This document shows positions 2,394 to 21,092 of a stretch of DNA of 64,000 nucleotides, piece by piece. The position numbers and the translations under genes are program-made. This stretch comes from Nitrospirota bacterium (GTDB lineage: Bacteria > Nitrospirota > UBA9217): assembly GCA_963818475.1 (NCBI GenBank), contig CAWFSF010000002.1, positions 288,001 through 352,000 on the forward strand. The letters run 5' to 3'. The notes below the pieces were generated by a model. That model did no database searches. It was not told the origin of the DNA and saw only the letters and a program-made list of their open reading frames with translations. Each line of letters opens with the position of its first letter. Within the stretch, counting starts at the first letter, position 1.

Positions 2394-3031
2394 ATGATCG
2401 CAATTATCGATTACGGAATGGGCAACTTACGGAGCGTTCAGAAGGGCTTTGAACGCGTGGGCCGCGAGGCCGTGGTCACGAGCGACGCAAAGACGATCTT
2501 AAGCGCAGGCAAGGTCGTGCTGCCCGGCGTCGGCGCGTTCCCGGACTGCATGCGGAACCTGGAGCAGAACGGCCTGATCGACGTGGTACACGAGACCATC
2601 AGATCCGGCAAACCCTTTCTCGGCATCTGCCTGGGGCTCCAGCTCCTGTTCACCGAGAGCGAAGAGTTCGGACTTTCAAAAGGACTGGATATCATCAAAG
2701 GCCGCGTGGTCCGGTTCAAGGGTCCTCAGTTCGAAACGCAGGATCCGAACGCGAAACATTGAAGGTCCCCCACATGGGCTGGAATTCCATTTCGATCAAG
2801 CGGCGGCCACCGGCGCTCCAGGATGTTCCTGACAACAGCCATGTCTATTTCGTGCATTCCTTCCATGTCGTGCCTGACGACAAGAACGTGATCGCCACGA
2901 CAACGGACTACGGCATCGAGTTCGTCTCGAGCATCTGGAAGGACAATATCTTCGCGGTCCAGTTCCACCCGGAGAAGAGCCAGACCCTGGGGTTGTCGAT
3001 ATTGAAGCGCTTCGGAGAACAGAAATCGTAG
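2394..3031 (+). CDS. hisH: Imidazole glycerol phosphate synthase glutaminase subunit (frameshift near 2760)
   Basis: IIDYGMGNLRSV, LPGVGAF, GICLGLQLL, KVPHMGWN, YFVHSF, QFHPEKS. Confidence 0.96.
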
Positions 3032-3035
3032 ATCC

Positions 3036-3160
3036 ACCACGGAGACACAGAGTCACAGAGAAGGCAAATTTAATCACAAGTTGACACAGATAACACGGTA
3101 ACAAGCTGATCAAGTCGCTTCTATTTCTAGCTTTCCTCCGTGCCTCTGTGTCTCCGTGGT
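3036..3160. repeat. Intergenic element with perfect 17-bp terminal inverted repeat, 9-mer units
   Basis: accacggagacacagag ... ctctgtgtctccgtggt; related copies at about 50680-50808 and 59561-59639. Confidence 0.8.
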
Positions 3161-3179
3161 AAAAAGTTTTGAGGTTTTC

Positions 3180-3925
3180 ATGCTGATCATTCCCGCAATC
3201 GATCTTCAAAGAAGGCAAATGCGTCCGGCTCGAACAGGGGCTCATGGACAAGGCCACGGTCTACTCCGATGATCCCGGCACCACGGCAAAGCACTGGGAA
3301 GCGCAGGGCGCCGAGCTGCTGCATGTGGTCGACCTGAACGGCGCGTTCGCCGGCGTGCCCAAGAACCTCGACGCCATCAAGGCCATCCGGGCCGCCATCA
3401 GGATCCCGATCGAAGTGGGCGGCGGCATCCGCGACATCGCAACGATCGAGACCCTCGTCTCGATCGGCATCGACCGGATCATCCTCGGCACCGCGGCCAT
3501 CGAGAACCCGCGTTCGTCGGCGAGGCCTGCAGGAAGTTCCCGGGCAGGATCATCGTGGGCATCGACGCCAAGGAAGGCCTCGTGGCGATCAAGGGCTGGG
3601 CAGAGGTCACGAAGGTGCAGGCCGTCGACCTCGCCAGGCAGATGCAGGACCACGGCGTTATCGCGATCATCTACACGGACATCAAGCGGGACGGCATGCT
3701 GTCGGGCCCGAACATCGAAGCGACCAAGGCGCTCGCGAAAGCGCTCACCATCCCGGTCATCGCCTCGGGCGGCGTGCATACCATGAAGGACATCGAGAAC
3801 CTGCTGACCGTCAGGCACTCCGGCGTCTCCGGGGTGATCACCGGCAAGGCGATCTACACGGCTCGCTCGATCTGAAGGAAGCGATCACGTTCGTCAAGAT
3901 GAACGACAACCGCTGCGCACGGTAG
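3180..3925 (+). CDS. hisA: ProFAR isomerase (apparent frameshifts)
   Basis: [52 protein letters not shown]. Confidence 0.95.
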
Positions 3926-5372: not shown

Positions 5373-5487
5373 CCCTGCGATCTTCCTTTTCGCCTGCCGG
5401 GGTTAGAAAAAGCGGGAAGAGGCTCCCGCCATGTCTTTCTTGCGCCTGATTATAGCATGGTCCGCGCTGGTCCGCCAGACCGGAAGC

Positions 5488-8400
5488 TTACCATCCGGCG
5501 AACCACTTCACCGCTTCCGCAGCGGAGAGCTGATCGAACTTCATCCTGAGCTTGACGAAGAATCCACGGCTCGTGAACTCGGCACGGGAGAAGTCCCGGT
5601 CATTGAATCCCTCGAAATTATAGCCGATGCTGATCCAGAGGTTCTTTGCAGCGGTATAACCCACTGAGGCCTGGCTTCCATAGCTTTTCTGATCGAGGCC
5701 CCAGGAATGCAGCATGCTGCCGCGGAGCCCAACGTCCCAGGACGTGGTGATATCGTATCGCCCTTCGATCCCGATCAGGTCCGTGTATCCGCGGTAGTCG
5801 TCCTGGTCGATCGTCTCCTGCACATACTTGGACCCGTACTGGAATGAGAGCTGGGTGCGGCTGTCCGCCCGATGGTTCAAGACGAGATTGTTCACCAGCC
5901 GCTGGTTCTCGAAGGATACCGCAGCGCTCTGCTGGTCCGTGCGAATGTAGTCGAAGCGGTCCAGAAGGATGATCCGGGTCTCGAATGGCCGGTAAGCGAA
6001 ACCGATCCGGAAGTCTCCGTTGAAATTCTCCGTTCCCGTTGCCGCGACGCTTCGATAGGTTTGCAGACCCGCGGCAAGCCCCAGGCCGCGCCGCACCTCG
6101 CCTACCGCGCCGGTCGTGAAGCTCACCCGCTCCTCGCTTTCAGAAACGCGGCGCTCTGCGCGGCCGGTCCAGGACCACTTCTCCTGGCGGTATCCTGCGC
6201 CGAGCGAAATGGCGGTGAAGTCCTCGGTGCTGCCCGACGCAGGCGGAACATTCGTATTCACCGAGTACGTTCCGCTGTTGCGGATCGTCGCGGTGCGGTC
6301 CACGCCGCCGTCGAGCGACCAGGCCTTCGTGAGCTGCCAGGTCTGCTTCAGCCCCAGGGTGGAGAAAAGCCGCAGGCCGTTCCCGGTCTCCAGCTGCTCC
6401 ATGGTGGAGCTCATCTGGCCGCCGGTCCAGGGCGACGCCCGCAAACCGATCCGGGTGGTCGCCGTGTCAGCCTGCTTGCCTTGGGTAAGCTCCTGATCGG
6501 CAAAGAACGTCGCGGTCGGGTTCAGCCGGTACTCCATGCCCATGGTCGTCCGCGTCGGAAAATCGATGTTGTCGCTGCTGCCGATGGACTGGTCGTGCTG
6601 GACCCTGCCGAAGAAGCGCTCCGTGAACTGATAACGCATGCTGGTATAGATCTGGTCGGACTGGTGCGTTTCACCTCCAGCCAGCGCATCCTCGGCCTGA
6701 CGCAGGCCGGCTGTCACGTCGTATTTCGTTCCCGTGTACCGTCCCCAGAGCTCGGCAAGGTTGCGCGTTGCGTTCGTGGAGAGGTTCTCCTGACGGAAGG
6801 CCTCGCCGCCCACGGACCAGGGCTGGTCAAGCCGGTAGAGCAGGCCTGCGCCCGTCTTCCGGGTGCCGGTTTCGCTGCCGTTCTGCTGGCCCAGGCCGAA
6901 ACCAGTCTCCTGCTCCCGCACGTAGGCCTTGCCGTCCATCCGGTCGCTCTGGTGCTGGACCTCTGCCAGGTATGCGGAACCCTCGGTCGTGACGCCGGCC
7001 TGCTCCGTCTTCGTGGTCGCCGCCTCTGCCCGGACCTTCGTTGCAGGACCGAGCTTCAGTGTGGCATCGACGCCTTCGAGGTTCCCTTCGCCGCCGACCC
7101 TGCCCTCATGCACGTGCGAGACCCCCACTTCCAGCGTCTGATCCAGAAGCTTCAGGGCGCCGCGGCCGCCGTAGGTGTACGACGTATCTGACGAATCATT
7201 GGACTCGTAGGCTGCCACGATGAAGATGGGGTTGAAGCTGCCATCCCTGCTGAATACGGGCGACTTGAAAAAGACCGTCCCCGCCTCGTAATCAATGGTG
7301 TAATCAAGAAAGCGCGTCAGCTGCAGCCGCGAGACAATGACCTCGCTCTTGAACCGGTCCCGGGTCTCGATGGTTATGCTCTCGGAATTGGCCGCGATGT
7401 TCCTGCGCGAGAGCCGGTAGAGGCCCGAGGTGCCGTCTCCCTGGATCTCATCCCTGACATAAGCCTGGTCCGTGTCCGCCAGGAACAGACTGTACTCGAA
7501 GTTCTCGCCCTTCATCTCGGATTTAAAACCCGTGAAGGTGCGGCTGTACCGAGACAGGTCGGTCACGGTCAGACCGGTGTCATAGTCGCCGAACAGGGCG
7601 TAGAACTGGTCGCGTTCCAGCTTGACATAGATGTTCTTCGCGCTCGCCGCATCGTATTGCTGCTCGCCGGCGTCACCGTAGAGGAGGTAATACTTGTTCG
7701 GATCGATGGTCTGGTAGAGGTCCCGTTTCTTGCTGCCGCTCTTTTTGCTGTCATAGGCAGCCGTGATCAGCCACTCTCCCTTGATCATGCCTTTGGCATA
7801 GAACGCCAGCCTGCCCTCTTCAGAGAAGCCGTCGCCGCCCGGCAGCGTCTCCATGTTGCCCGTTACCGTGTCGTAGCCCACCGTGCCCTCGGCAAGGCCC
7901 ACCAGGACCCAGTCGCGGGTCTCGGGTCTGAGCCAGACGCGGATCTCCTGCACCCCCTGTGCGAGCGGGATCCGGACAACCGCCTCCCCGGTGCGCGTGG
8001 TGGCCGCAAGTTCGATGAGCGCCACGCCGTCCTCACTCACCTCATACCTGAACCGTTCGCGCGGTCTGAGCGGTGAGCGGCGCCTGCTGCAGCTCCGTTG
8101 CGCGCTGCTGCGGCAGATAGGGCGGGTCAATGCTGAATTCGCCGAGCGCTCCCTGGCGCGCCGGATGGCCGTCCCGGTCAAGGAGCCGGACAGCGATGAT
8201 CGCCGGGTTCCTGCCGTCGGCAACAAGCCGCGATCGCCCGGGCTCCAGAACAGCCTGCAAGGGAGGGCCTGAATAGTGCATCGAACGCTCCATGCGGCTG
8301 ACCTCGGCGCCTGACGGGTCAAGGACCACCAGCTCGAACCGGTTATCACCGTCAACGAGGTGAATGCCGCGCCAGATGCTGACCCCGACGGTATGGTCGT

Positions 8401-11400
8401 TCTTCTTCACCGTTCCGTCGAAATAGAGCGCATCCACCGGAACGCCGTTCTGGAGGAGCCGCACCGTCATGCTCGGGTCATGCTTGATCGCGATCTTCGT
8501 GCTCGCGATGGCGGGATGGTCGCTGTCAGGCGGCCAGAGCCAGGCAGTACCGGGCTCTGCTGTGTCGAGCCAGGCAGCAGTGTAGGCCGGCATGCTCTTG
8601 TTGTCCGAAACAGCGGCTGTTCCCTTTTCCGGAGCCCAGACCTCACCGGGCCGGAGCCCGATCGTTGCCACGGCCTTCATGCCGCTGGCCGGGCCGCTCT
8701 TGAGGGCGGGGACTACGAGGACCTGCAGAGGCGGCCGCACCTTGAGTTCCACGCGGCGGTTCCGGGTCCGGCCCTGCTCCGTTGCGTTGCTTGCCACCGG
8801 CTCGTCGGGCCCTTTGCCCTCATAGGTGACTTGGTCAGGTGCAAGTCCCAGCGCGTCGGCGAGGTACGACCCGACCGCTGCCGCGCGCTCGAACGACAGG
8901 GCGTGGTTGTCGGGATACCGCGCTTGCAGTCTGCGGCTGATCGGCCGCGAGTCCGTATGGCCGGTGACCGTAATGTGCTGCACGCGCACCTTTCCGAGCC
9001 GGACAAGGAGACGGTCCAGTTCCTTTTTATCATTCCCGGTCAGGACCGCACTGCCGCTCGAGAACTTCGGATGGAGCACGATGTCCGGCACGGGCTGGAG
9101 CTCCTCGCGGGTGCCAATAACGAGCGCGGTGTTCACCGCCGGCGTCCGGTTGTTCCTGGCCTCGGGCGAATCCGACGTAAGCACGGCTCCGGTAGGCAGC
9201 TGCCGGCCTTCGGGACCTTCGAGCGGCACCGCCGCGTCGAACTTGACCATCCCTTCCCAGTTCGCAGGGACCTCAGCGAAACGGAAGGTCAGCGCTCCCG
9301 CGGTTTCCTGAGGCTCGCCGATGGGGATAACGACCGGGGAGGCTCCGGTCGCCGCTCCGTCAACGATTCTGCCGGAAAAGATCACACTGCCCTTCCGGTA
9401 AGATGCCCCCTCAGGGAGCATGATCGAAAGCTTGAGGTTGCGCGCCGGCACCATGCCCACATGCATCGGCATCGTGTACTCAATGAGGTCCTTCCCAGCA
9501 CCCGCGCCCGGTGCGCCGTCTGCGGACCGCTTCGGAGCCGTGGCGATCTCGATGCTTACCTCGCCGGCAGCCTTCGGTTTGAGGCCGAGGTGGAAGTCCG
9601 CACGCCAGAGCGTCCCGCCCTGCAGATCCGCGAACCGGGAGAAGGGGTTCCCGGCAGAGCGGGTGTTCTCTTCACAGGGCAGGATCTCGTATTTCTCGGG
9701 CACGGTCGCAGTGTCAAGCTGAACCACGTGCGTGCCCGGCTTCACCGCAGCGAAGTGGAACATGCCCTGCTCGTCCGTCACCACGTAGGTGCCGTCCTCC
9801 AGGAAGATCCGGACCTGAGCCAGGCCGGCGCCGATGCTCCGGTCAGGATCGCCGCACCCGTCTATGGCCACACGGCCCGCGATGGTCGCCGTGGAGCGGA
9901 ACAGGTCCTCGATGACCAGCACCGTGGCAGTGGCGGCGTTCGATGCAGAGCCGATCACGGTCGTGGCTACAGCCGTGTTAACGGCCTTGCCGGGATTGGC
10001 GCCTGCTCCGACCGACGCCACATAGGCAACCAGTGCCCTGCCTGACGGTCCCAGGTCGCCGACGGAGAAGGTAAGCCCCCGGCCGTCAGGGGTAACCGTG
10101 GGATCGGCCAGCCGCACGCCGTTCAGCCGGGCCGAGCCTTTCTCGTAGCGGAATCCCGCGGGGCAGCCGGTCCGTGACACCGACACCCGGCGCAAACGCC
10201 GTCGTATCGGCGTTCTCCACCGTAAGAGTATAGGGAACGAAATCTCCTACAGCTGCGGTCGCCTTTGCCGCGGTCTTCTGGAGCCAGAGCCCGGTTCCCA
10301 CGGGGTCCACAGGAATGTCGATATGGAGCGCCGGACCGGGGTTCACCACGAATTCCTCGCCTCTTGATCCGGGATCCACCATGGCAAAGGGGCTGCCCGG
10401 CAGCGCCTGGATCGTCGAGGTGGGCACTGCCGAAGGGGCCCGGTACGCAGCCGGCGGGACAACATCGAGGCGGTAGCGTCCGGGCGCGATATAGGGGAAC
10501 CGGAAACCGCCGGCGGCAAAAGTGTAGCTCGCGCCGCCGCTGTCCATGGCTGTGCCGCCGGAAGTGACCGAGGCCGGGAATGCTGACACGCCGTCATCGC
10601 CATACACCGTGGCAGGCAGGCCGGTCGTTGTGTCAACGAGGGTGACCGTGGCCCCGTCCACGGGCAGGCCGGTCGTGCTGTTGAAGACCAAACCATAGGG
10701 ATCGACCAGAGCAAGGTCGACGCGGCTGTCGGTGCTGTCGGCCACGTCCACGTAGGAGCCGTTGATCCGGGAATTGACGGCAACGCTCAGGATCCCGTTC
10801 CCGCTCACGGCGGGCCCGGGACCGGTCTGGATGTAGCCGGTGAATACGCCCGTGTTCGGGCCGGTCTCGCGAAGACGCAGAACCTCTATGTCATTGGTGG
10901 CGCTGACTCCGACCGTCACCAGGACGGTCTCGATGGCCGCAGGATCGAGGTCCTGGTCAAGGTCGGTCAGGCGGATGAAGAGCGGTTCGCCGGTATGGTA
11001 TGTGCTTCCTGGCACCAGCGGGACAGGCGCGCTGAGGTTGATCGGCGCGGTGCTCGGGAACTGTACCGGATCGGGCAGAACGGCAAAAGGACCTGCGCTC
11101 GTGCGGTAGTCCGTCAGTGAAATGACCGTCGGACGGCTGACGGCGACGCCGGGGCATACTGCAGGAACTCAAGGACCGACGGCGTGCGCGTTGCCACGGT
11201 GGTGATCCGCACCAGGTTGGAACTGGAGGCTACGCCGGCGCCGTCCACGGTATAGGCCGCCGTGGCCGTATTATCGATAAGGGTCCCCGGCGGCACTGCC
11301 CAAAGAGATGAGGACGAAAGAATAAGAATGAAAAGGACCAGGATTGCCATCAGTCCCGATGATGCTGCCCGGGAAAAACAAGCAGCCGCAGGAGCGCATT

Positions 11401-11522
11401 CCGCGCCCCTGCGGCTGATGATCGAATTCTTTTCCAAGCAGCAGACGCAGCCCGTCCGTGCTGCCCATGCTCCGGGCAACCGGTCTGACGACTGCATCAC
11501 TGTTGCGGGAAAAGTGGTTCAT
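5488..11522 (-). CDS. Very large (about 2000 aa) outer-membrane protein: N-terminal DUF11 donor strands, Ig/DUF11/SdrD-B-like domains, OmpA-like peptidoglycan-binding domain, C-terminal beta-barrel (broken by apparent indels; start between 11350 and 11522)
   Basis: Consecutive minus ORFs 11114-11500, 10086-11015, 8042-10195 and 5488-8355 join by frameshifts. Signal peptide AILVLFILILSSSSLWA; DUF11 LWLQKT..GDFVPYTLTVEN..VTDRLP..AVNTA; OmpA motif FSSGSA..VTGHTDS..NHALSFERA..G.DEPVASN..GRTRNRRVE; about 700 aa of amphipathic beta-strands at the C-terminus. Confidence 0.8.
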
Positions 11523-11537
11523 ACTGCGAACTGCTCC

Positions 11538-12656
11538 TTACTGGACCACGACCTGGAACTTGATCACTGCCGATGACGAGAGTGGGATCGTAAGCCCGCT
11601 CACCGTCACGGTATTGGCAGTGAAGTTCGCCCCGTCTCCGTCTGCGTTCGTGTTGGTCTTGCATCCGCCGTTCACCACGATGCCCTCCCCTGCGACGCAG
11701 GTGATCGTAACGCCGTCATTGAACTGCGTGTTAAAGGCCAATCTGCCTGCAGCGATCTCAGCAGCAAGGCTGTCGGTGATGGACACATTATCGGCTTGAG
11801 AACCGGTCGCGCCGTTCGTCACCGTAATGGTGTAGGTGATGACCGCTCCGGGGATCATCTTGGGATTTGACGAGCTGAACGGATCGGAATAGACCACTGC
11901 GGTTTTGGTGATCGTCAGGGCTGCTGCGGTCACCCGGTACGCGCTCCGGTCGGAACCCTCTCCGTCATATTGCGTGTCCGTCCCCACGCTGGCGTTGGCT
12001 GCATCGGCAAAGACCACGTCCACGCCGAGCAGGTTGTTCGCGGCACCGGAGGAGTCCGCCGTCAGCGCGCCAAGACCCGCTCCGCCCGCGTTATGCGTTG
12101 TAGCAATAAGAGCGTAGGCGGCTATATCATTGGTGGCCTGGCCTGCGGGAATGTCTGCCACGATGTAGACCGTCGCGGTTGCATCGGAGACCAGTTCGTC
12201 AATGATAGTCGCAGTGTCCGCACCCGCCTGGTATCCCGCTGTTCCGTTGGTCTCAACAAAGACCTGAACGTTCGCGGCGTCGAAGGAATCGGCCGCATCT
12301 CCGTTGAAGGGATCAGTGGCAGCTGCCGCCGCGAGACTATAGTCCTGCGTTGCGTTGCCATTGTTCCTCACCGTAAAGGTCTGCACCTGCGAGGTTGAAC
12401 TGGGTGCCGTGCTCACATAACTGCCGTCCGTGGTCGTCACGGTGAGGTTGACCTTTGTGTCAACCGCAAAGGTCGCCGTGGGGCCCGTGCTGAGCGGAGT
12501 CTGTGCCACGCCGCTGACCTCGTAGTTGACCGTGGCGCTGTTGGTGATCAGTGTTCCTGAAGCCGTGCCCGCGGCCTCTGCCGACAGCGGGGCGACGATG
12601 GCGATTGCCGCGATCAGCAGCAGCGCCATAAATCTGTAGATCCTGTTCGTATTCAT
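11538..12656 (-). CDS. Secreted split-DUF11 protein, candidate major pilin (372 aa)
   Basis: Strong RBS AGGAGG before ATG 12656; signal peptide ending LSAEA; mature N-terminus AGTASGTLITNSATVNY; C-terminal DUF11 LTITKT..PGAVITYTITVTN..SITDSL ending IKFQVVVQ*. Confidence 0.85.
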   Translation of the reverse strand: MNTNRIYRFMALLLIAAIAIVAPLSAEAAGTASGTLITNSATVNYEVSGVAQTPLSTGPTATFAVDTKVNLTVTTTDGSYVSTAPSSTSQVQTFTVRNNGNATQDYSLAAAAATDPFNGDAADSFDAANVQVFVETNGTAGYQAGADTATIIDELVSDATATVYIVADIPAGQATNDIAAYALIATTHNAGGAGLGALTADSSGAANNLLGVDVVFADAANASVGTDTQYDGEGSDRSAYRVTAAALTITKTAVVYSDPFSSSNPKMIPGAVITYTITVTNGATGSQADNVSITDSLAAEIAAGRLAFNTQFNDGVTITCVAGEGIVVNGGCKTNTNADGDGANFTANTVTVSGLTIPLSSSAVIKFQVVVQ

Positions 12657-12821
12657 GTAATTCCTCCTTCGTAGTACTTCACCATTTCGTTCAGGTAGTT
12701 TATTCTGCTGCACGTGTTCTTCGCTTCTTATCAGTTTAATATCTGCAGTTGCACCACACTCCTTTCAACAATCAGTTTTATCAAGTCTTGTGAACTTGCT
12801 TGCATAGATATAAAAACCTTC

Positions 12822-13317
12822 TCATTTCACCATGGCCCGGAACGAAACGCTGCCTTTGCCGCCCGGAGCCAGCGGTTTGCCCAGGGTCCAGCGTATATGC
12901 GTATAATCCCCGGCCGTGGCCCGCTTCGACACTCCCTTGGCATCGGTCTTCGTCAGCTTATCCGGGGCTGCATAGCGCTTTCCCCTGGTCCACGGAGAAT
13001 TCGATCTTCATGCCCTGGCCCTCGGCGCTGTTCTCGACGTAGACAACGTGTTCGGACACGGGATTCGTTATCACGACATTCTCTACAGGCTTTTTGTCGA
13101 TGTTCGCATACTGCGTGGTGAATATGACCACATCGCCCGGTATGACCTTGGCTGCTGCGGCATCCACCCGCGTCACCTCTTTTTCACCTTTGGTGTTCGT
13201 TGCGGTGACCTCGACCTCGGAAATTGATATCAGTTCAAGGCTCCCTTTTTTCTGCGCTGTTGCAATCGTCGGCAGCAGCAGAACCAGCAGCACCATGCTC
13301 ACAACCGTTTTTGTCAT
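12822..13317 (-). CDS. Small secreted stand-alone truncated DUF11-like protein, candidate chaperone/cap (frameshift near 12980)
   Basis: Signal peptide ..LLPTIATA; PGDVVIFTTQYAN..NVVITNPV; after the frameshift ..YAAPDKLTKTDAKGVSKRATAGDYTHIRWTLGKPLAPGGKGSVSFRAMVK* (stop 12822-12824). Confidence 0.8.
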
Positions 13318-13341
13318 TATCGTATGCCCTCCTTGTAGTGC

Positions 13342-14380
13342 TCAATTTATTTTCACGTCAAACGTAATGGTCTGGACCGGGGAAGACGCGCTGTTCAGGT
13401 CCCCGAGCCTCACCGTCACCGTCCCGGCGGTCGTTACGTTCACGTCTCCTGCGTCGGCATCCGCGGCATCGGTCAACAGGCTGTTGTTCAGCCTGAGCGT
13501 TCCGGCCACAGAGGTCGTATTTGTCGGAACCGGGTCCGAGATCACCACACCGGTTGCCGTGCCCGACCCGGACACGGTCACGGTGATGGTATACCGGATG
13601 GTTGCACCGGTGACGGGCTGACCGCCTGCGGAGGTCACCACTGCGCTTTTCAAGAAGCGAGACCATTGCGCTGGCAACACGATAAGCTGACGCTGCCGAG
13701 TGCGCGCTGTCCCTGATCCCGTCGGCAACACCTGCTCCATCGGCAAACACGGTGTCCACCGCAGCCTGGGTGTTCGGCCCAACAGTCTCCGGGACCACGC
13801 CACCCAGTACGCCGACGACGCCGCCGGACCGGGCTGTTGCGACGAGGCTCAGCGCGGAGACATCGCCGCTCACCTGGGCTCCCGGCATGTCGGCAACGAT
13901 ATAGACCGTGCGCACGGCGTCAGCTGCCAGCTCGTCAAGATAGGTCCCCGTGTCCTCCGCAGCCTGATACCCTGCGGTCACGCCGCTCTCAGCGAATACC
14001 TGCGGATTCGCTGCATCGAAGTTGTCGGTCCCTCCGAAGGGGTCAGCAGCAGGGACCGCTGCAAGGGCGAAATCCTGCACGCTGTTGCCGGTGTTCGTCA
14101 CCGTGAAGGTCAGCACCTGAGAAGCTGCACCGGGAGTGACGCTCACAGGGACGCCGTTCGTTGTCGCTGCGATGAGATTGATCTTTTGGTCGACCACCAG
14201 GCTGGTCAAGGCAGTGATCGGGGGCTGGGGGCTTCCGCCATAGTCATACGTGGCGATCGCCAGGCTCGATATGGTCACCCCCGCGGGCGTGCCGGCGGCG
14301 CGGGCGGAGCGCTCCATGATCGTCACCAATACAGTCAGGGCGATGAATGCCGCCAGAACATATTGTGCTGTTTTCTTCAT
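13342..14380 (-). CDS. Secreted split-DUF11 protein, paralogue of 11538-12656, candidate minor/adaptor pilin (frameshift near 13655)
   Basis: Signal peptide ..ERSARA; N-terminus AGTPAGVTISSLAIATY; middle domain matches the paralogue (FTVTNTGN..QDF, DNFDAAN.QVF, DEL..D....VYIVAD.P, VD.VFAD); C-terminal VSLLKS..GATIRYTITV..VISDPVP..ITFDVKIN*. Confidence 0.83.
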
Positions 14381-14403
14381 AGCGAGCGCCCTTGTGCTCC
14401 TCA

Positions 14404-17400
14404 TCACTTCACCCTCACCCGGAACTGCAGCGCAAAGGAGGGAGTGTTCGTGCCGCTCGCACCGTTGAACGTTCCGCTCAGGGATATTTTGATATTCGTA
14501 ACACTGCCGTCGAAACCGTTCACGTCGGGAACCGGCAGGTAGTCGTAGGTTGCACCGTTGTTGCTCGAGAACGAGATGCTGTCAAAAATATTCGACAGGC
14601 CTCCAAAGGCGTAACTGAGCCCGCTCGCTATGGCGCCGTCCGAGAATGCAATGGGGCCGGAACCGGCGACACCGAAGTCACCGGCAAAGAACTCGGTTAA
14701 GGATGGAAGGGGATCGGTCACTACCACAGTCCCTGCAGCGCCTCCCCCGGTATTCGTGGCCAGGATCGTGTACTGCATGCTCGATCCGGGGATGGCCTTG
14801 GGACTGGTGGTGCCGTTCACCGGGTCGGAGTAGGTATTCACGGACTTGACCATCACGATATTGGGGTGGCTTACTGAGGTGAACAGCACACTGGAACTAT
14901 TGTTGGCCATATTCGGATCGGTCTGGTCGTTGGCCGTAATGCTTGCGCTATTGGTAATGGTCACTCCGCCCGCGGTCACCATGGCGGTTATGTTCAGCGC
15001 TTTTGTCGCATCCTTGGCCACGCTGCCCGCCGTCCAAACGCCGGTCCCGCTGTTGTAGGCGCCGCCGCCGTTGTCCGACACATAGGTGACACCCGCGGGC
15101 AGCAGATCGGAAACCATTATGCCGGTCGCATTGTTCGGACCGCTGTTCCCGATGGTGAGCGTATAGACGACGGTGGTTCCCTGGTTTGGCGTTGAGTTGC
15201 TCACGGTCTTGGTGATGTAGAGGTCGGTGCTCTGCACGGTGATCACCGCGCTGGCGGTGTTGTTGGAACTGTTGGTGTCCCCCTGATCCGCCGACGTCCT
15301 CACGGCCGTGTTCGTGATGGTGCTCCCTGCCGTGCCGGTATTGACCGTGGCGTTGATGGTCAGCGTTGCCGTTGCTCCGCTGTTCAGGGCGGCGATGCTC
15401 CAGATGCCGGTCACGCTGGTATAGGTGCCTGCGGTCGCAACGGACGACGTCAAGGTCAACTCCGCGGGCAAGAGATCGGTCACCACGACCGTTGTTGCGT
15501 TGTTCGGGCCGTTGTTCCTGAGCCCGACGGTGTACACGACCGCGCCCCCTTCGTTGGGCGTTGCATTGTCCACCGTCTTGGTCACTGCCAGGTCCGTCGC
15601 GCCAACCACAAGGGACGCGCTCGCTGAATCGTCGGCTGGATTGATGTCGCTCTGGGTCACGGCGGTGATCGACGCCATGTTGTTGATCGTCTGACCCATG
15701 GTACCTGCGTTGACAGTGGCCGCCAGCAGCATGGTGGCCGTCGCTCCCGAGTTGAGCGGGCCAACGGTCCAGGCGCCCGAACCGCTGTTGTAACCGCCTT
15801 GCGTCACCGACGATCCTCCGGCAGCGTAGGTGAGTCCCGCGGGAAGCGCGTCGCTCACGGTTACGTTCGTGGCATTGGTCAGGGACGGATTGCTGATCAC
15901 GATTGTGTAGGTGACGGTCGCGCCGATTGCCGGCGATGTATTGTTCACGGACTTCGTGACCGCAAGGTCCGTGATCCCCACGCCGACCACCAGCGAATTG
16001 ATCGACGAGTTGTTCGCGTTCACCGGATCCGCCTGGGCTGCTGACACGATCTCGGCCATATTGTGAACGGTGGTGCCGTTCGCTGTTGCATTCTTCACGG
16101 TCACATTGATGGTGAGGGCCGCGCTCGCACCGCTCGCGATCGGCCCGGCTATGGTCCAGGTGAGCGTCGGCGCGGAATAGGTCACGGACCCGGTGGTGGC
16201 CGATGCCGAATTGTACGTAAGGTTCCCGGTGTCGATCACGTCCCGCACCGCGATGTTCGTTGCAGGGTGCGGACCGTTGTTGGTGAGCACCACGGAATAG
16301 GAATAGGCTTCGTTCTTGTTCGGCGAGGGGTTGCTCGAAGTCTTGGCCACGGATAGGTCTGCACGCTGCACCGTGATCGACGCGTTCGCCGTGTTGTTCG
16401 CCGTGTTGGGGTCGCCGACGCTCGCGCCGTTGATGGAGGCCATATTCGTGATCGTCATGCCGTTCGTGCCCGCGTTGACCGTGGCAGTGATGGTCCTGAC
16501 CGCGGACCCGCCTGCCATGATGGTGCCTGCGGACCAGAGACCGCTCCCGCTCACGTAGGTGCCGGTGCCTGCGGACGAGACATAGGTCAAGCCGGCGGCG
16601 AGCAGGTCCGAGACCGTGACCGAACCTGCGCTGTAGAGCCCGTTGTTTGTGACGGTAATCGTATAGGTTATGGAATTGGCCTCGTTCGGTGCCGCATTAT
16701 CGACTGTCTTGGACAGGGACAGATCAACGCCGCTGATGAAGACCGAAACGCTGGCACTATTGTTCGCGGTCATGGGATCTGCCTGATCGGATGTTGCCAC
16801 CACCGCCGTGTTGGTCGCTGTTGTACCCATGGCACCATCCACATCCGCCGTGATGCTGAGCGTTGTGGTCGCGCCGCTCGCGAGGTTGCCGACGGTCCAC
16901 GTGCCGCTGTTGTAGGACCCTTGGGTGGCGCTGGACGTCGAATACGTCAGTCCCGAGGAAAGGACGTCGGTCACCGTCACGCCTGTAGCGAGGGAGGAGC
17001 CCAGGTTTTGGAGCGTGACCGTGAAGACCACGCTCCCGCCGGTCGGAGGAGAAGTGTTGTTCACGGTCTTGAAAAGGGCGAGATCCGCGCCGCCGATCGT
17101 GAGCGAATTGCTTGCCGTATTATTGCCGCTCACCGGATCATAGATGGCCGAAGCGGTGATGCTGGCGGAATTGGCAAAGGTCGCTCCCTGGGTGCCCGCA
17201 TTCACGGTCACGGTGATGGTCAGCGATGCGTTCGCGTTGTTCGCGAGCGAGGGCACTTCCCACACACCCGTGGTGCGGTTATAGGTCCCGGCCCCGCTGT
17301 CCGAGACCCAGGTCACGCCAGCCGGAAGCATATCGGTCACCTGGATGCCGGTCGAGTTGTTCGGTCCGTTGTTCGTGACCGTAAGCGTGTAGGTCACGGT

Positions 17401-18573
17401 CTCCCCTTCTGCGGGCGTGGTTTTGTCCGCCGTCTTGGCCATGCTCAGGTCTGCGGCCTTCTGCACGGTCAGTGTGTCGGTCCTAAGTTGATTGGTGTGG
17501 TAGGAGGCGTCGATTGAGTCGAGATAGGTGACGGTCACTGTCTCGATGGCTGTCACCTGGAGCGAGCCGTTCCCGGTAACCGGCGCGCCCGTTGCTGTTG
17601 TGAGAGACCCGGTGAAGATGCCCGTATTAACGTCGGTTTCGGTCAGCGTCACGGTCTCGCTGTCGCCGGTCGGGCTAGTTACCGAGACCGTAAGAGTCTG
17701 GACCGCGGCGTGATTGGTGTTCACATCCTGGTCCGTCATGTTTATGTAAAGGGTTTGGCCGGAATTGAGCTGGGTCACGTCGCCGGTTCCGGCAAGGTTC
17801 GAGACGAACGTGACCGTACCGGTGGCGGGATAGGTGCCCAACGGCGTGACCGCATCGGTGGCATTGGCAGGCATGCACTGGGAGAGATTTGTTGAGCACG
17901 TATTGGATATATCAACGAGGTCCGCCGAGAGAGACTGGGCGCTGTTCGAGCTCCCAATGAAGAATCTGATGGGAGAGGTATCGGTCAGGCCTGTTTTGGC
18001 TTTAAAGGTGGCGTAAGGGATGCGGAAATCGAGGAAATAGTCCCGCCCACCATTCGTCGACGAGTCTGCGGTAACGGTCCGGAAATTGACGTTCAACTGC
18101 CACTGCTCGGACCAGACGGTGACTTCAGTCTTGTCGGACGGGTCACCCAGCGTCCCCTGAGAGGTGTTCTGACCGATCTCGATCGTATCGGGATTATCAA
18201 TGCCGTTCAGCATCACCATCCACTCATAGTCGCTGAAGTCATTGTCCGTATCGATCAGGAACCCCCAGCCGAACGGCTGAAGGCCGGTACCCTGATTATT
18301 CAACGCGTCCCCATCCACACGAATACGATAGAACATATAGGTGCCGTCATTAAACAGGTAAGCTGAGGGATAGGTCGACGTATTGGTGACGATGTCCCGG
18401 GGGTCGTTGGCTCCGCCTTGGGAGTCACTGATGATGTCCGTAAGGCCGGACATGGTTTTCGTCAAAACGATCCACTCGGAGTCCAGCGGCCAGGCAAAGA
18501 GATATGCCGGATAAAGGCAGATGGCCAGAAGGGTGATGATGAGTATTTTTTTTAAGTTCCTCATGAAATTCAT
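14404..18573 (-). CDS. Large secreted adhesin-like protein with 7 complete and 1 C-terminally truncated DUF11 repeats (1389 aa)
   Basis: Signal peptide; seven repeats DLxxxK..YTxxxxNxG..VxDxL..GxTxxNxA..D...NN; eighth unit PNIVMVKS..PGSSMQYTI..VVTDPLP ends LQFRVRVK*. Confidence 0.9.
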   Translation of the reverse strand: MNFMRNLKKILIITLLAICLYPAYLFAWPLDSEWIVLTKTMSGLTDIISDSQGGANDPRDIVTNTSTYPSAYLFNDGTYMFYRIRVDGDALNNQGTGLQPFGWGFLIDTDNDFSDYEWMVMLNGIDNPDTIEIGQNTSQGTLGDPSDKTEVTVWSEQWQLNVNFRTVTADSSTNGGRDYFLDFRIPYATFKAKTGLTDTSPIRFFIGSSNSAQSLSADLVDISNTCSTNLSQCMPANATDAVTPLGTYPATGTVTFVSNLAGTGDVTQLNSGQTLYINMTDQDVNTNHAAVQTLTVSVTSPTGDSETVTLTETDVNTGIFTGSLTTATGAPVTGNGSLQVTAIETVTVTYLDSIDASYHTNQLRTDTLTVQKAADLSMAKTADKTTPAEGETVTYTLTVTNNGPNNSTGIQVTDMLPAGVTWVSDSGAGTYNRTTGVWEVPSLANNANASLTITVTVNAGTQGATFANSASITASAIYDPVSGNNTASNSLTIGGADLALFKTVNNTSPPTGGSVVFTVTLQNLGSSLATGVTVTDVLSSGLTYSTSSATQGSYNSGTWTVGNLASGATTTLSITADVDGAMGTTATNTAVVATSDQADPMTANNSASVSVFISGVDLSLSKTVDNAAPNEANSITYTITVTNNGLYSAGSVTVSDLLAAGLTYVSSAGTGTYVSGSGLWSAGTIMAGGSAVRTITATVNAGTNGMTITNMASINGASVGDPNTANNTANASITVQRADLSVAKTSSNPSPNKNEAYSYSVVLTNNGPHPATNIAVRDVIDTGNLTYNSASATTGSVTYSAPTLTWTIAGPIASGASAALTINVTVKNATANGTTVHNMAEIVSAAQADPVNANNSSINSLVVGVGITDLAVTKSVNNTSPAIGATVTYTIVISNPSLTNATNVTVSDALPAGLTYAAGGSSVTQGGYNSGSGAWTVGPLNSGATATMLLAATVNAGTMGQTINNMASITAVTQSDINPADDSASASLVVGATDLAVTKTVDNATPNEGGAVVYTVGLRNNGPNNATTVVVTDLLPAELTLTSSVATAGTYTSVTGIWSIAALNSGATATLTINATVNTGTAGSTITNTAVRTSADQGDTNSSNNTASAVITVQSTDLYITKTVSNSTPNQGTTVVYTLTIGNSGPNNATGIMVSDLLPAGVTYVSDNGGGAYNSGTGVWTAGSVAKDATKALNITAMVTAGGVTITNSASITANDQTDPNMANNSSSVLFTSVSHPNIVMVKSVNTYSDPVNGTTSPKAIPGSSMQYTILATNTGGGAAGTVVVTDPLPSLTEFFAGDFGVAGSGPIAFSDGAIASGLSYAFGGLSNIFDSISFSSNNGATYDYLPVPDVNGFDGSVTNIKISLSGTFNGASGTNTPSFALQFRVRVK

Positions 18574-18932: not shown

Positions 18933-18961
18933 AAAAAAGGCGGGACCAATTCGTCCCGCCT
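18933..18961 (-). terminator. Intrinsic terminator after adk
   Basis: aaaaaa-ggcgggac-caattc-gtcccgcc-t hairpin with U-tract on minus strand. Confidence 0.75.
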
Positions 18962-19000
18962 CGTACCATTCTTGAAATCGATAAGCGCTGCTTCCTGAAA

Positions 19001-19745: not shown

Positions 19746-21092
19746 TCAGGCGAGGTTGTACTTTTTGAGCTTCTCGTGCAGCGTGGACCGCGACATGCCG
19801 AGGATCTTTGCGGCGGTGCTGCGGTTGCCCCCCTCTGCATGCAATACCTTGAGAATATATTCCCGCTCCATCTCCGCCAGCGGCCGATAGCCTTCGCTGC
19901 CGGCCTGCCTCCCTGCATCGCCCCTGTCGCGCTCTTCACCGGTGATCTCCCGCGGCAGGAGGTCGACCGGGACCAGGCTGCTGCGCGACAGCACTATGGC
20001 ACGCTCGACGATGTTCTTGAGCTCCCGAACGTTCCCCGGCCAGGCATAGGCCTGCATAAGCTCCAGCGCCCGGGGAGAGAAACCGGTGACGTGCTGCTTC
20101 AACGTGGCGTTGAACTGCCGCACGAAATAATCGATCAGCACCGGAATATCCTCGGGGCGTTCGCGCAGCGGCGGCATGGTCACAGGGAAGACCTTGAGCC
20201 GGTAGTAGAGGTCCTCGCGGAAACGCCCTTCCGCCACAGCCCGCTCCAGGTCCCGGTTGGTCGCCGCGATGACGCGCACATTGACCGCAATGTCCCGCGT
20301 GCCGCCCACCCGTTTGAAGCGCTGCGTTTCGAGCACGCGGAGCAGCTTCGGCTGAACTGCCAGCGGCATATCGCCCACCTCATCGAGCAGCACCGTGCCG
20401 CCGTCAGCCACCTCGAAGAGGCCCTGCTTCTGCTCCCGCGCATCCGTGAAGGCCCCCCGCTCATGGCCGAACATCTCGCTCTCCAGCAGCGTCTCCGAGA
20501 GCACGGCGCAGTTGATATCGAGGAACGGCCGGTCGCTCCGTGCACTCCTTCGATGGATCTCCCGTGCCGCCAGTTCCTTGCCCGTGCCGCTTTCGCCGAG
20601 CAGCAGGGTTGTCGTCTCGGCATTCTCGGCCATCAGATCGATCATATGGTGCAGTGTCTGGATCGCCATGGACGTGCCGACCAGGGGGTGGTCCAGCAGC
20701 TGCCGGTAGTAGCGGTTCTCGATCCGCAGTTTCCGCGTCTCGAGGATCCGGTTGATCAGCGCCGACAGCTCGAGGAGCTGGGCCGGTTTGGTGAGATACT
20801 GCTCGGCGCCGAGCTTGATCGCCTCGACCGCGTTCCCGATGGAACCCCAGCCGGTCATGACCACCACCGATGCCCGGCATCCCTGATCTTTCAGACGCCG
20901 CAGCACATCGAGCCCGGCCATGTCCGGAAGCTTCATGTCAAGCAGGACCACATCCGGCGCAAAGCTCTCGGCAAGCGTAAGCGCATCGCTCCCGGTCTCC
21001 GCGTGCGCTGCGTCCCAGTTCAGCGATTTGAAGTAATGGAGCAGCGGCGTTATTACGGGGCGTTCGTCGTCTACCAGCAGGATCCTCGGCAT
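19746..21092 (-). CDS. Sigma-54-dependent response regulator (REC-AAA+-Fis HTH, NtrC/AtoC family)
   Basis: LLVDDE/LLDMKLP receiver; GESGTGKE, ESEMFGHERGAFTDA, LLDEVG, FREDLYYRL, WPGNVREL; C-terminal GNRSTAAKILGMSRSTL. Confidence 0.95.
   Translation of the reverse strand: MPRILLVDDERPVITPLLHYFKSLNWDAAHAETGSDALTLAESFAPDVVLLDMKLPDMAGLDVLRRLKDQGCRASVVVMTGWGSIGNAVEAIKLGAEQYLTKPAQLLELSALINRILETRKLRIENRYYRQLLDHPLVGTSMAIQTLHHMIDLMAENAETTTLLLGESGTGKELAAREIHRRSARSDRPFLDINCAVLSETLLESEMFGHERGAFTDAREQKQGLFEVADGGTVLLDEVGDMPLAVQPKLLRVLETQRFKRVGGTRDIAVNVRVIAATNRDLERAVAEGRFREDLYYRLKVFPVTMPPLRERPEDIPVLIDYFVRQFNATLKQHVTGFSPRALELMQAYAWPGNVRELKNIVERAIVLSRSSLVPVDLLPREITGEERDRGDAGRQAGSEGYRPLAEMEREYILKVLHAEGGNRSTAAKILGMSRSTLHEKLKKYNLA

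Follow-up and report, generated by a model that had tools for sequence, protein, structure and literature searches.

A five-gene operon of split DUF11 domains as a candidate donor-strand pilus with isopeptide locks in a Nitrospirota bacterium

We analysed a stretch of 64,000 nucleotides (nt) from a Nitrospirota bacterium (GenBank assembly GCA_963818475.1, contig CAWFSF010000002.1, positions 288,001 to 352,000), referred to here as the window, in which five minus-strand genes lie at 18573 to 5488 in the order tip, pilin A, small protein, pilin B and anchor. Judging from sequence comparisons and structure models, we consider it probable that this operon specifies a pilus whose subunits are completed by donor-strand complementation and probably locked by isopeptide bonds, and which is anchored and perhaps secreted by a barrel protein. 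The interpretation is supported in silico by the computed split point of the DUF11 domain, the pattern of roles among the proteins, the conservation of a reactive triad, the synteny of the genes and a predicted head-to-tail interface. The five genes are as follows (aa, amino acids; ORF, open reading frame).

14404-18573, minus strand: tip protein, 1389 aa, intact, with a signal peptide and 7 complete DUF11/CLIPPER repeats
13342-14407, minus strand: pilin A (adaptor type), one frameshift near 13651
12822-13317, minus strand: small protein, ~165 aa if intact, one frameshift near 12986
11538-12713, minus strand: pilin B, intact, likely start Met20 (nt 12656), ending IKFQVVVQ before the stop
5488-11500, minus strand: anchor, ~2000 aa in relatives, here four ORFs with three frameshifts (near 11110, 10160 and 8059)

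In the scheme that we infer from these results, including bond formation, polymer length, surface location and the roles of the barrel pore and the small protein, the operon would encode a surface fibre of a diderm bacterium. The C-terminal domains of the tip and the pilins would be CLIPPER/DUF11 sandwiches one strand short, which keep a Lys in the first strand and a catalytic Asp in a TD motif. The missing, Asn-bearing strand would be supplied by the mature N-terminus of the next protein, in the chain order tip, pilin A, pilin B (n copies) and anchor. Insertion of the strand would complete the fold and gather Lys, Asp and Asn, and a spontaneous Lys-Asn isopeptide bond could lock each joint with no sortase or ATP required. 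The anchor would terminate the fibre with its own donor strand, and its OmpA domain would hold the fibre to the peptidoglycan. We regard the insertion of strands between chains as likely and, given such insertion, the covalent lock as quite likely.

DUF11 was renamed CLIPPER in a 2025 paper (PMC12617251), in whose relevant passages the structure PDB 9IFR has an intramolecular isopeptide bond between Lys715 and Asn806 with Asp748 beside it. The tip matched the DUF11 family model in 8 stretches (Pfam; 682 bits, cut-off 24.6). Its complete repeats span residues 374-1237, and its N-terminal region has no Pfam match. Lys, Asp and Asn were found within one domain in all 7 complete repeats. The repeat starting at residue 993, which contains LTINATVNTGTAGSTITNTAV, has Lys 7, Asp 41 and Asn 96 by hand count. 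This is the spacing of the 9IFR triad, and it puts the Asn in the strand beyond the split described next.

The terminal domains lack the Asn strand in their own domain, and the strand stands at the N-terminus of the pilins and anchors. The acceptor domain of the tip (residues 1238-1389, nt 14407-14862) has its Lys in VMVKSV and its Asp in VVVTDPL, has no Asn strand and ends LQFRVRVK at the stop of ORF 14404-18573. In pilin A, the acceptor Lys lies in LKSAVV (13636-13653) and the Asp in VISDPV (13528-13545); the second frame (13342-13803) ends ITFDVKIN, and the C-terminal fragment matched DUF11 at 29.9 bits over Pfam positions 9-84 of 114, up to 3 residues short of the stop. The acceptor domain of pilin B carries Lys270 (nt 11904-11906) and Asp314 (nt 11772-11774); the protein matched TIGR01451 (29.9 bits, cut-off 24) and fell below the Pfam DUF11 cut-off. 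The small protein, in its second frame, ends VSFRAMVK (stop at 12822-12824). On the donor side, AGTPAGVTISSLAIATY follows a signal-peptide-like stretch in pilin A (nt 14240-14296), with Ser at the position of the donor Asn. Pilin B has its donor strand at residues 48-66 (nt 12516-12572), with Asn58; residues 48-64 read AGTASGTLITNSATVNY after a signal-peptide-like stretch, and an N-domain and then the C-terminal acceptor domain follow. In the anchor, the donor start VPPGTLIDNTATAAY again follows a signal-peptide-like stretch, and the donor strand VPPGTLIDNTATAAYTV occupies nt 11246-11296. The terminal and starting strings quoted in the first-pass annotation, a model's reading of the letters that proposed such a pilus, are all present where it had placed them.

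To locate the split, a reference profile of the 7 complete tip repeats (122 columns) was compared with the family alignments by profile-profile alignment (hhalign). The first half of the pilin C-domain corresponds to repeat columns 2-52 (probability 96.7%, expectation value (E) 4.5e-10). The last 40 residues of 158 pilins stop at column 85 (E 0.016), and the ends of 53 tips (E 0.04) and 87 small proteins (E 0.011) reach column 85-86. The N-terminal 27 columns of the pilins correspond to columns 86-107 (E 0.001) and 76 anchor N-termini to columns 86-110 (E 7e-4). Over the last 40-45 residues of the three families, the acceptor thus ends at column 85-86, and the donor starts from column 86. The end matches, weak as they are, converge on one point, and this is the point at which the first-pass annotation had divided the domain.

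The roles of the proteins were consistent with this split. The tip and the small protein are acceptors only, the pilins are both donor and acceptor, and the anchor is a donor only. This pattern, proposed from the window, holds across the loci of 8 relatives and 80 scanned loci (4 loci are in both sets). Within the first 130 aa, 135 of 143 pilins and 56 of 58 full-length anchors carry a donor motif, compared with 3 of 46 tips (those of the 80 loci) and 60 of 3322 other ORFs, in agreement with the roles. At least two of the 3 tip matches lie away from a signal-peptide junction. Of the two anchors that lack the motif, one is split so that a separate ORF encodes its N-terminal part, and in the other Gly replaces Ala. 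A 20-column donor hidden Markov model (hmmsearch) discriminated poorly, no anchor scoring 10 or more, and the detection of donors rests on the motif count and the profile comparison.

The reactive residues follow the protein roles exactly. Among 159 pilins, the counterpart of Lys270 is present in 159, that of Asp314 in 157 and that of Asn58 in 148; the tips have Lys in 51 of 53 and Asp in 51 of 53. The Asn is kept in 86 of 86 pilins encoded downstream of the small gene. The pilins without it are all upstream pilins, mostly from Nitrospirota, and include pilin A of the window. The proposed division, in which the acceptor contributes Lys and Asp and the next subunit contributes Asn, is supported for the pilins and tips in general and fails for the donor strand of this pilin A. 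With Ser in its donor strand, the tip-to-adaptor joint of the window would not be locked by an isopeptide; by sequence, this joint may be non-covalent throughout the window's clade, though the tip keeps Lys and Asp.

AlphaFold 2 (AF2) gave a monomer of pilin B with a mean predicted local distance difference test score (pLDDT) of 90.3 and a predicted template modelling (TM) score of 0.77. When two copies of residues 46-391 were folded, the interface score ipSAE (interaction prediction score from aligned errors) was 0.61 (runs 0.59, 0.61 and 0.63) versus 0.00 for the best of 3 controls. Of 30 proteins solved as pairs of one chain, 20 reached a mark of 0.61, as did 1 of 23 solved as single chains; these counts are only a rough guide because our own alignment had been supplied. 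Contacts agreed by at least 97% between runs, and the pLDDT of the partner was at least 88. Residues 48-87 of copy 2 lie against residues 262-325, 376, 384 and 390-391 of copy 1, in a head-to-tail, open-ended arrangement whose pairs include 270-60 and 314-60. Residue 60, touched by both Lys270 and Asp314, is two places from Asn58. In this model, then, the N-terminal strand of one copy is predicted to enter the C-terminal domain of the other, as the first-pass annotation had anticipated for a pilin dimer, and the interface fits strand donation between chains.

We also considered whether a remembered structure could account for the score. No solved structure related to pilin B by sequence was found (0 matches), and a fold search of the model against the PDB returned generic matches only (integrin legs, SspB, Saf and CfaB fusions; TM < 0.3). 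With no solved relative by sequence or fold, the two-copy result is unlikely to stem from a remembered structure of the pilin B family. Donor-strand pili in general have solved structures.

The anchor comprises, in order, the donor strand, stalk domains, an OmpA domain, two immunoglobulin (Ig)-like domains and a large beta-barrel. The peptidoglycan-binding OmpA domain (~nt 8756-9064; PF00691, cut-off 27.2) scored 56.1 bits in fragment 8042-10195 and 59.1 bits in the anchor of genome G014, and it is the only part with PDB sequence matches. By its sequence, this domain would tie the base of the fibre to the peptidoglycan. The internal DUF11 of the anchor is complete (profile 4-111 of 114), and the N-terminal strand is therefore left without a partner in its own chain. 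The barrel lies roughly at nt 5491-7830. An AF2 model of the last 1080 residues of an intact anchor (pLDDT 77.7) shows two Ig-like domains followed by many consecutive strands, 32 by hand count over residues 500-1063 and 7 more before. Many positions that are invariant in the alignment fall within a small beta insert at 430-490. On this model, the C-terminal region, with at least 32 strands and a conserved inserted domain, would likely serve as the outer-membrane passage: a wide barrel with a plug-like insert could pass folded subunits. As a conduit through the outer membrane, we rate it a serious possibility, slightly short of an even chance.

ORFs matching only part of the anchor C-terminal profile were also seen outside any pilin operon. 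They are ~240-2030 aa long (~1700 aa in 5 of 9) and match only positions ~248-660, which cover the first barrel strands and the conserved insert. They occur in G000 (C6:1566463-1567108), G010, G020 and G023, with second matches in G003, G007, G014 and G022, and may form a related barrel family.

The small protein has a signal peptide followed by a single acceptor-type DUF11 domain and no donor strand. Its fragment in the window scored 16.6 bits against DUF11, below the cut-off; the intact G014 copy scored 35.1. In the window, VVITNPV puts Asn at the catalytic Asp site, and Ile occupies the Lys position. Among 87 small proteins, the Asp site holds Asn in 74 and Asp in 12, and the Lys site holds Lys in only 27, so that the absence of reactive residues noted for the window is mostly, not always, the rule. 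The most likely use of such an unreactive acceptor would be as a chaperone-like cap that holds donor strands in the periplasm by reversible binding; we assign the chaperone role only tentatively. The small protein would then be an 'inverse' chaperone, capping donor strands rather than acceptor grooves until their handover to a reactive groove, and the irreversible bond would drive assembly in the ATP-free periplasm. Together with natural split isopeptide subunits that self-ligate and a ~2000-aa protein acting as last subunit, anchor and plugged pore, this would amount to a further class of Gram-negative pilus, a proposal that in its full form we think rather unlikely.

Several observations weigh against the fibre proposed here. 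The end-of-domain alignments are individually weak (E 0.011-0.04). Asn58 is absent from the 25 best contact pairs of the two-copy model, and only its neighbour, residue 60, touches Lys270 and Asp314. The two-copy score is the model's own confidence, and a value this high may be attained by as many as 19 in 100 single chains. In the AF2 monomer, the N-terminal strand is placed with high confidence (pLDDT 94, residues 51-60), and the dimer interface includes residue 249 from one copy together with residues 262-264 from its partner, so that a fold-back of the strand into its own chain looks sterically possible. Pilin A lacks the donor Asn not only in the window but also in its nearest relatives, which have Ser or Gly there (L016, L017, L014 and L015). 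The modelled anchor resembles no particular barrel family: its PDB matches are to large outer-membrane barrels in general (SlpA, SprA, LptD, TonB-dependent receptors, MtrB and FimD, TM up to ~0.3), with FimD at rank 48 (TM 0.30). The OmpA domain, which is expected to be periplasmic, lies between the presumed external stalk and the barrel, and the N-terminal stalk of the anchor would consequently have to thread its own barrel. Finally, if the five frameshifts are real, the window's copy of the operon is dead in this organism.

The monomer result is what would be expected if the pilins were circularly permuted, each strand folding into its own C-domain with an intramolecular isopeptide, to give separate surface or periplasmic proteins and no polymer; with residue 249 near 262-264 in the interface lists, the linker could close the loop in one chain. 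Offered two copies, however, the model placed the strand of one in the other. A stronger argument against fold-back comes from the acceptor-only and donor-only proteins, which make sense only with strands passing between chains. The tips keep Lys and Asp yet almost never carry the donor motif, and the anchors keep the donor strand though their only DUF11 is complete; permutation would leave these proteins with a permanently unfinished domain or a spare strand. We consider this explanation improbable. A similarly low probability applies to a short modular adhesin of fixed length, in which tip, adaptor, one or a few copies of pilin B and anchor are joined once each as a stalk, in the manner of a fibrillar adhesin supplied piecemeal. 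In its favour, there is one gene per role, and the tip and anchor already carry many stalk domains (7 DUF11 in the tip). For pilin B, however, head-to-tail self-association is predicted; it carries a donor as well as a reactive acceptor of the same type, and it is followed, before the anchor gene, by a strong hairpin of the kind expected for an abundant subunit. A donor-strand polymer without the covalent lock, its Lys, Asp and Asn serving folding or being ancestral relics, could cite the oligomers of Clostridium perfringens BsaA N35A, which resist sodium dodecyl sulphate without the bond until heated (PMC11580942), and the Ser or Gly of pilin A in the window's clade, which means that at least one joint works without the Asn, but it is likewise improbable given the near-invariance of the triad in the pilins, the selective lack of Lys and Asp in the small protein, which is hard to explain unless these residues react elsewhere, and the bond that the same triad forms in a complete CLIPPER domain (PMC12617251).

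The frame changes were placed by alignment with intact relatives. The indels flagged at first reading could be resolved in this way into five frameshifts, located in pilin A, the small protein and the anchor. They look like assembly errors, on three kinds of sequence comparison. First, hisH (two frames) and hisA (three frames), at window 2394-3922, are also frameshifted relative to a same-genus relative of 90-100% identity, which points to indel errors across the whole assembly. In addition, a second paralogous operon copy outside the window (G000 contig C1, ~8290-18260, minus strand; tip-pilin-small-pilin-anchor) is in more ORF pieces than the window copy, its anchor giving 13 overlapping ORF matches. 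Finally, exactly one base is missing at 8059/8060, 10160, 12986/12987 and 13651 from contigs that come from four public runs and are 90-99% alike; some of these one-base comparisons rest on a single contig at depth < 5, and the contigs are from relatives, not the same strain. Real pseudogenisation was not favoured for these reasons. The contigs of two public runs also carry 86-87 other bases in place of ~89 at window 11622-11713, which corresponds to pilin B residues ~334-364, a variable stretch within the C-terminal domain.

We next consider how widely the genes are distributed. The five genes and their order are identical in eight loci of related genomes, whose unbroken anchors measure 1985-2026 aa. 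The pilin was found in 11 of 41 related genomes, all 11 of which have a full-length anchor. Six further related genomes match the anchor profile, G022, G026 and G035 over most or all of it and G010, G020 and G023 over positions 248-660 only. At the database level, the pilin family has 1940 representative clusters at E <= 0.001 and 342 at 1e-30, and the names given to its members go no further than 'hypothetical', TIGR01451-family or DUF11. One genome per species was scanned, which gave 466 stretches encoding pilin relatives among 569 pattern matches, and the figures for 80 loci refer to the best 80 of that scan, 5 of them from isolates. Four of these loci (L021, L022, L060 and L061) are on the same contigs as L016, L017, L019 and L014, so the pooled counts hold a few duplicates.

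The 80 loci comprise 22 from Alphaproteobacteria (21 Sphingomonadales), 20 from Gammaproteobacteria, 10 from Nitrospirota, 7 of Delta- or Thermodesulfobacteriota type, 6 from unspecified Pseudomonadota, 5 from Betaproteobacteria, 5 labelled 'bacterium' and 5 others (Campylobacteraceae, Zixibacteria, Eisenbacteria, Krumholzibacteriia and one Pedobacter metagenome-assembled genome). Novosphingobium arvoryzae KCTC 32422 and Sphingomonas oligophenolica JCM 12082 are among the cultured carriers. With profiles built from the Nitrospirota set, 70 of the 80 loci showed the small protein, pilin and anchor genes in direct succession. Of the 10 exceptions, 6 have listed genes that run to a contig end, and the remaining four contain either a fragmented pilin or an additional one. 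A tip-class gene accompanies the core, upstream or downstream, in 45 of 80. The five-gene synteny suggested from the window is thus borne out in the 8 related loci and reduces, in the wider set, to the three-gene core with a tip-class gene in somewhat over half of the cases.

Tip length varies greatly (396-1945 aa), and so do the N-terminal regions, which hold a G8 domain in G014 and 7 DUF11 repeats in the window; the last ~150 residues are shared (L013:16234-19614, window 14404-18573 and L016:2660-8497 compared). Such variability over a shared C-terminus is as expected for exchangeable adhesin heads. Separately, tip nt 16801-17775 and the N-terminal part of the anchor (10140-11522) share a homologous stretch (28-30% identity, E 1e-17), which by eye includes a TDxDxN...ETGxNTGxFTG motif before the DUF11 repeats.

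Pilin B is likely the major subunit. The edges of the operon and the region after pilin B are marked by the following hairpins.

18937-18962, minus strand: terminator-like hairpin 3' of adenylate kinase, the upstream edge of the operon
11383-11417, minus strand: strong hairpin, 16 pairs of which 12 are G-C, with a T-rich tail
5411-5430, minus strand: terminator-like hairpin directly 3' of the anchor gene, the downstream edge of the operon

The strong hairpin follows the stop of pilin B and precedes the Met at 11350 where the anchor likely starts. A possible function is attenuation, by which the hairpin would set how much subunit is made relative to anchor, and its position fits an abundant major subunit. 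All five proteins have Sec-type signal peptides by eye, with A-x-A-type sites followed by A/V-G-T and no Cys. The flanking genes are his genes and those for a receiver-domain protein, adenylate kinase and a sigma-54 activator. The last is a sigma-54-dependent response regulator that adjoins the operon at 19746-21092, its identity being confirmed in the window only. Genes of similar size, whose translations start receiver-like by eye, were seen at L016:771-2117 and L014:1218-2645, and one of the two stands beside a 928-aa gene. A scan of the window for the sigma-54 promoter consensus gave 6 matches versus 5.04 expected, none of them upstream of the operon. The 4 largest plus-strand ORFs within the operon region had no Pfam match (4 of 4) and were treated as antisense ORFs of GC-rich DNA rather than genes.

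The first-pass annotation had found no sortase, PapD or PapC homologue in the cluster. This absence extends to the genome, which is 91% complete: the usher family (PF00577) and the PapD-like chaperone (PF00345) each gave 0 matches, the latter with a positive Escherichia coli control, and sortase (PF04203) gave none. The same annotation knew of no description of the mechanism, and this claim must be divided. The principle of strand exchange followed by a lock is not new, its precedents in the passages concerned being BsaA (PMC11580942) and an archaeal thread (PMC9715654). For the outer-membrane version based on DUF11, our literature search found no split-DUF11/CLIPPER pilus in diderm bacteria and no account of the operon. 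The passages of a 2026 review on 'intermolecular isopeptide' and 'donor strand' name only non-covalent donor-strand pili (PMC13721041). Two apparent sources were set aside: the 'DUF11' text matches of the tafi paper (PMC11821415) are to DUF1102, and the F-ENA preprint has DUF11 only as a spacer within a spore anchor. The in silico evidence supports the operon as a fibre of the donor-strand, lock type that has wholly different parts and a wide distribution. If this is true, many environmental diderm bacteria carry an unrecognised covalent adhesive fibre without chaperone-usher, sortase or ATPase parts, and its carriers span Nitrospirota, Desulfobacterota-type lineages and Gamma-, Beta- and Alphaproteobacteria, cultured sphingomonads among them. 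The joints would be a natural counterpart of SpyTag-like ligation and a source of orthogonal tag/catcher pairs, and the barrel would be a new outer-membrane translocon for study.

Among known systems, chaperone-usher pili have an unfinished Ig-like subunit that is completed by the next N-terminal strand, as the two-copy model predicts for the proposed fibre, and they share with it a tip adhesin that comes first and a terminator that comes last. They also pass through an outer-membrane barrel with an inserted domain, the usher having 24 strands and a plug (PMC13721041), as the barrel of the operon would. The operon differs in that its subunit fold is CLIPPER/DUF11 and not the pilin Ig fold, its joints are probably covalent, and its terminator, peptidoglycan anchor and barrel are one protein. 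Its barrel is larger (at least 32 strands by hand count), and its candidate chaperone is an acceptor domain and not a strand donor.

In BsaA, a member of the TasA family, the N-terminal strand enters the neighbour and the donor N35 bonds to the acceptor K74 with E56 as catalyst, and mutants lose oligomers (PMC11580942). The proposed likeness lies in donor-strand exchange followed by an Asn(donor)-Lys(acceptor) lock with an acidic catalyst. BsaA is a Gram-positive matrix fibre with a TasA-like fold and a Glu catalyst, whereas the operon has an N-D-K triad on a DUF11 fold; BsaA also has no outer-membrane component and no set of tip, adaptor and anchor. None of the operon proteins has a TasA-family Pfam match, so the operon would work alike but is not a TasA/BsaA member. 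In the archaeal thread, donor strands likewise link subunits head to tail into a filament, an intermolecular isopeptide is present and a neighbouring gene encodes a cap protein; in Saci_0406, Asn57 is bonded to the N-terminal amine of Asp24 of subunit n+2 (PMC9715654). It differs in being archaeal, with no outer membrane, and in its unrelated subunit, which has no Pfam domain.

The stalks of CLIPPER/DUF11 adhesins (PDB 9IFR) belong to the same family and have the same triad, and the 7 repeats of the tip are ordinary members. The passages of PMC12617251 contain no 'split', 'truncated' or 'donor strand', and its supplements (Tables S2 and S3), which lay outside the search, could list these proteins. 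In the adhesin stalks the bond lies within one domain, whereas the terminal domains of the operon are split and the Asn strand is on another protein. In isopeptag/pilin-C and SpyTag/SpyCatcher, a strand excised from an isopeptide domain binds to it again and is ligated spontaneously. DogTag/DogCatcher is reported as a pair of the same type. Unlike these laboratory constructs from Gram-positive adhesins, the operon would be a natural split that serves polymerisation. The type V pili of Bacteroidota assemble by strand exchange and do so with no chaperone-usher pair; the operon differs in that its mature N-termini have no lipobox Cys by eye. Sortase pili of Gram-positive bacteria have covalent joints and intramolecular isopeptides; the operon, in contrast, has no sortase and no LPXTG, and its C-termini end in a beta-strand directly before the stop.

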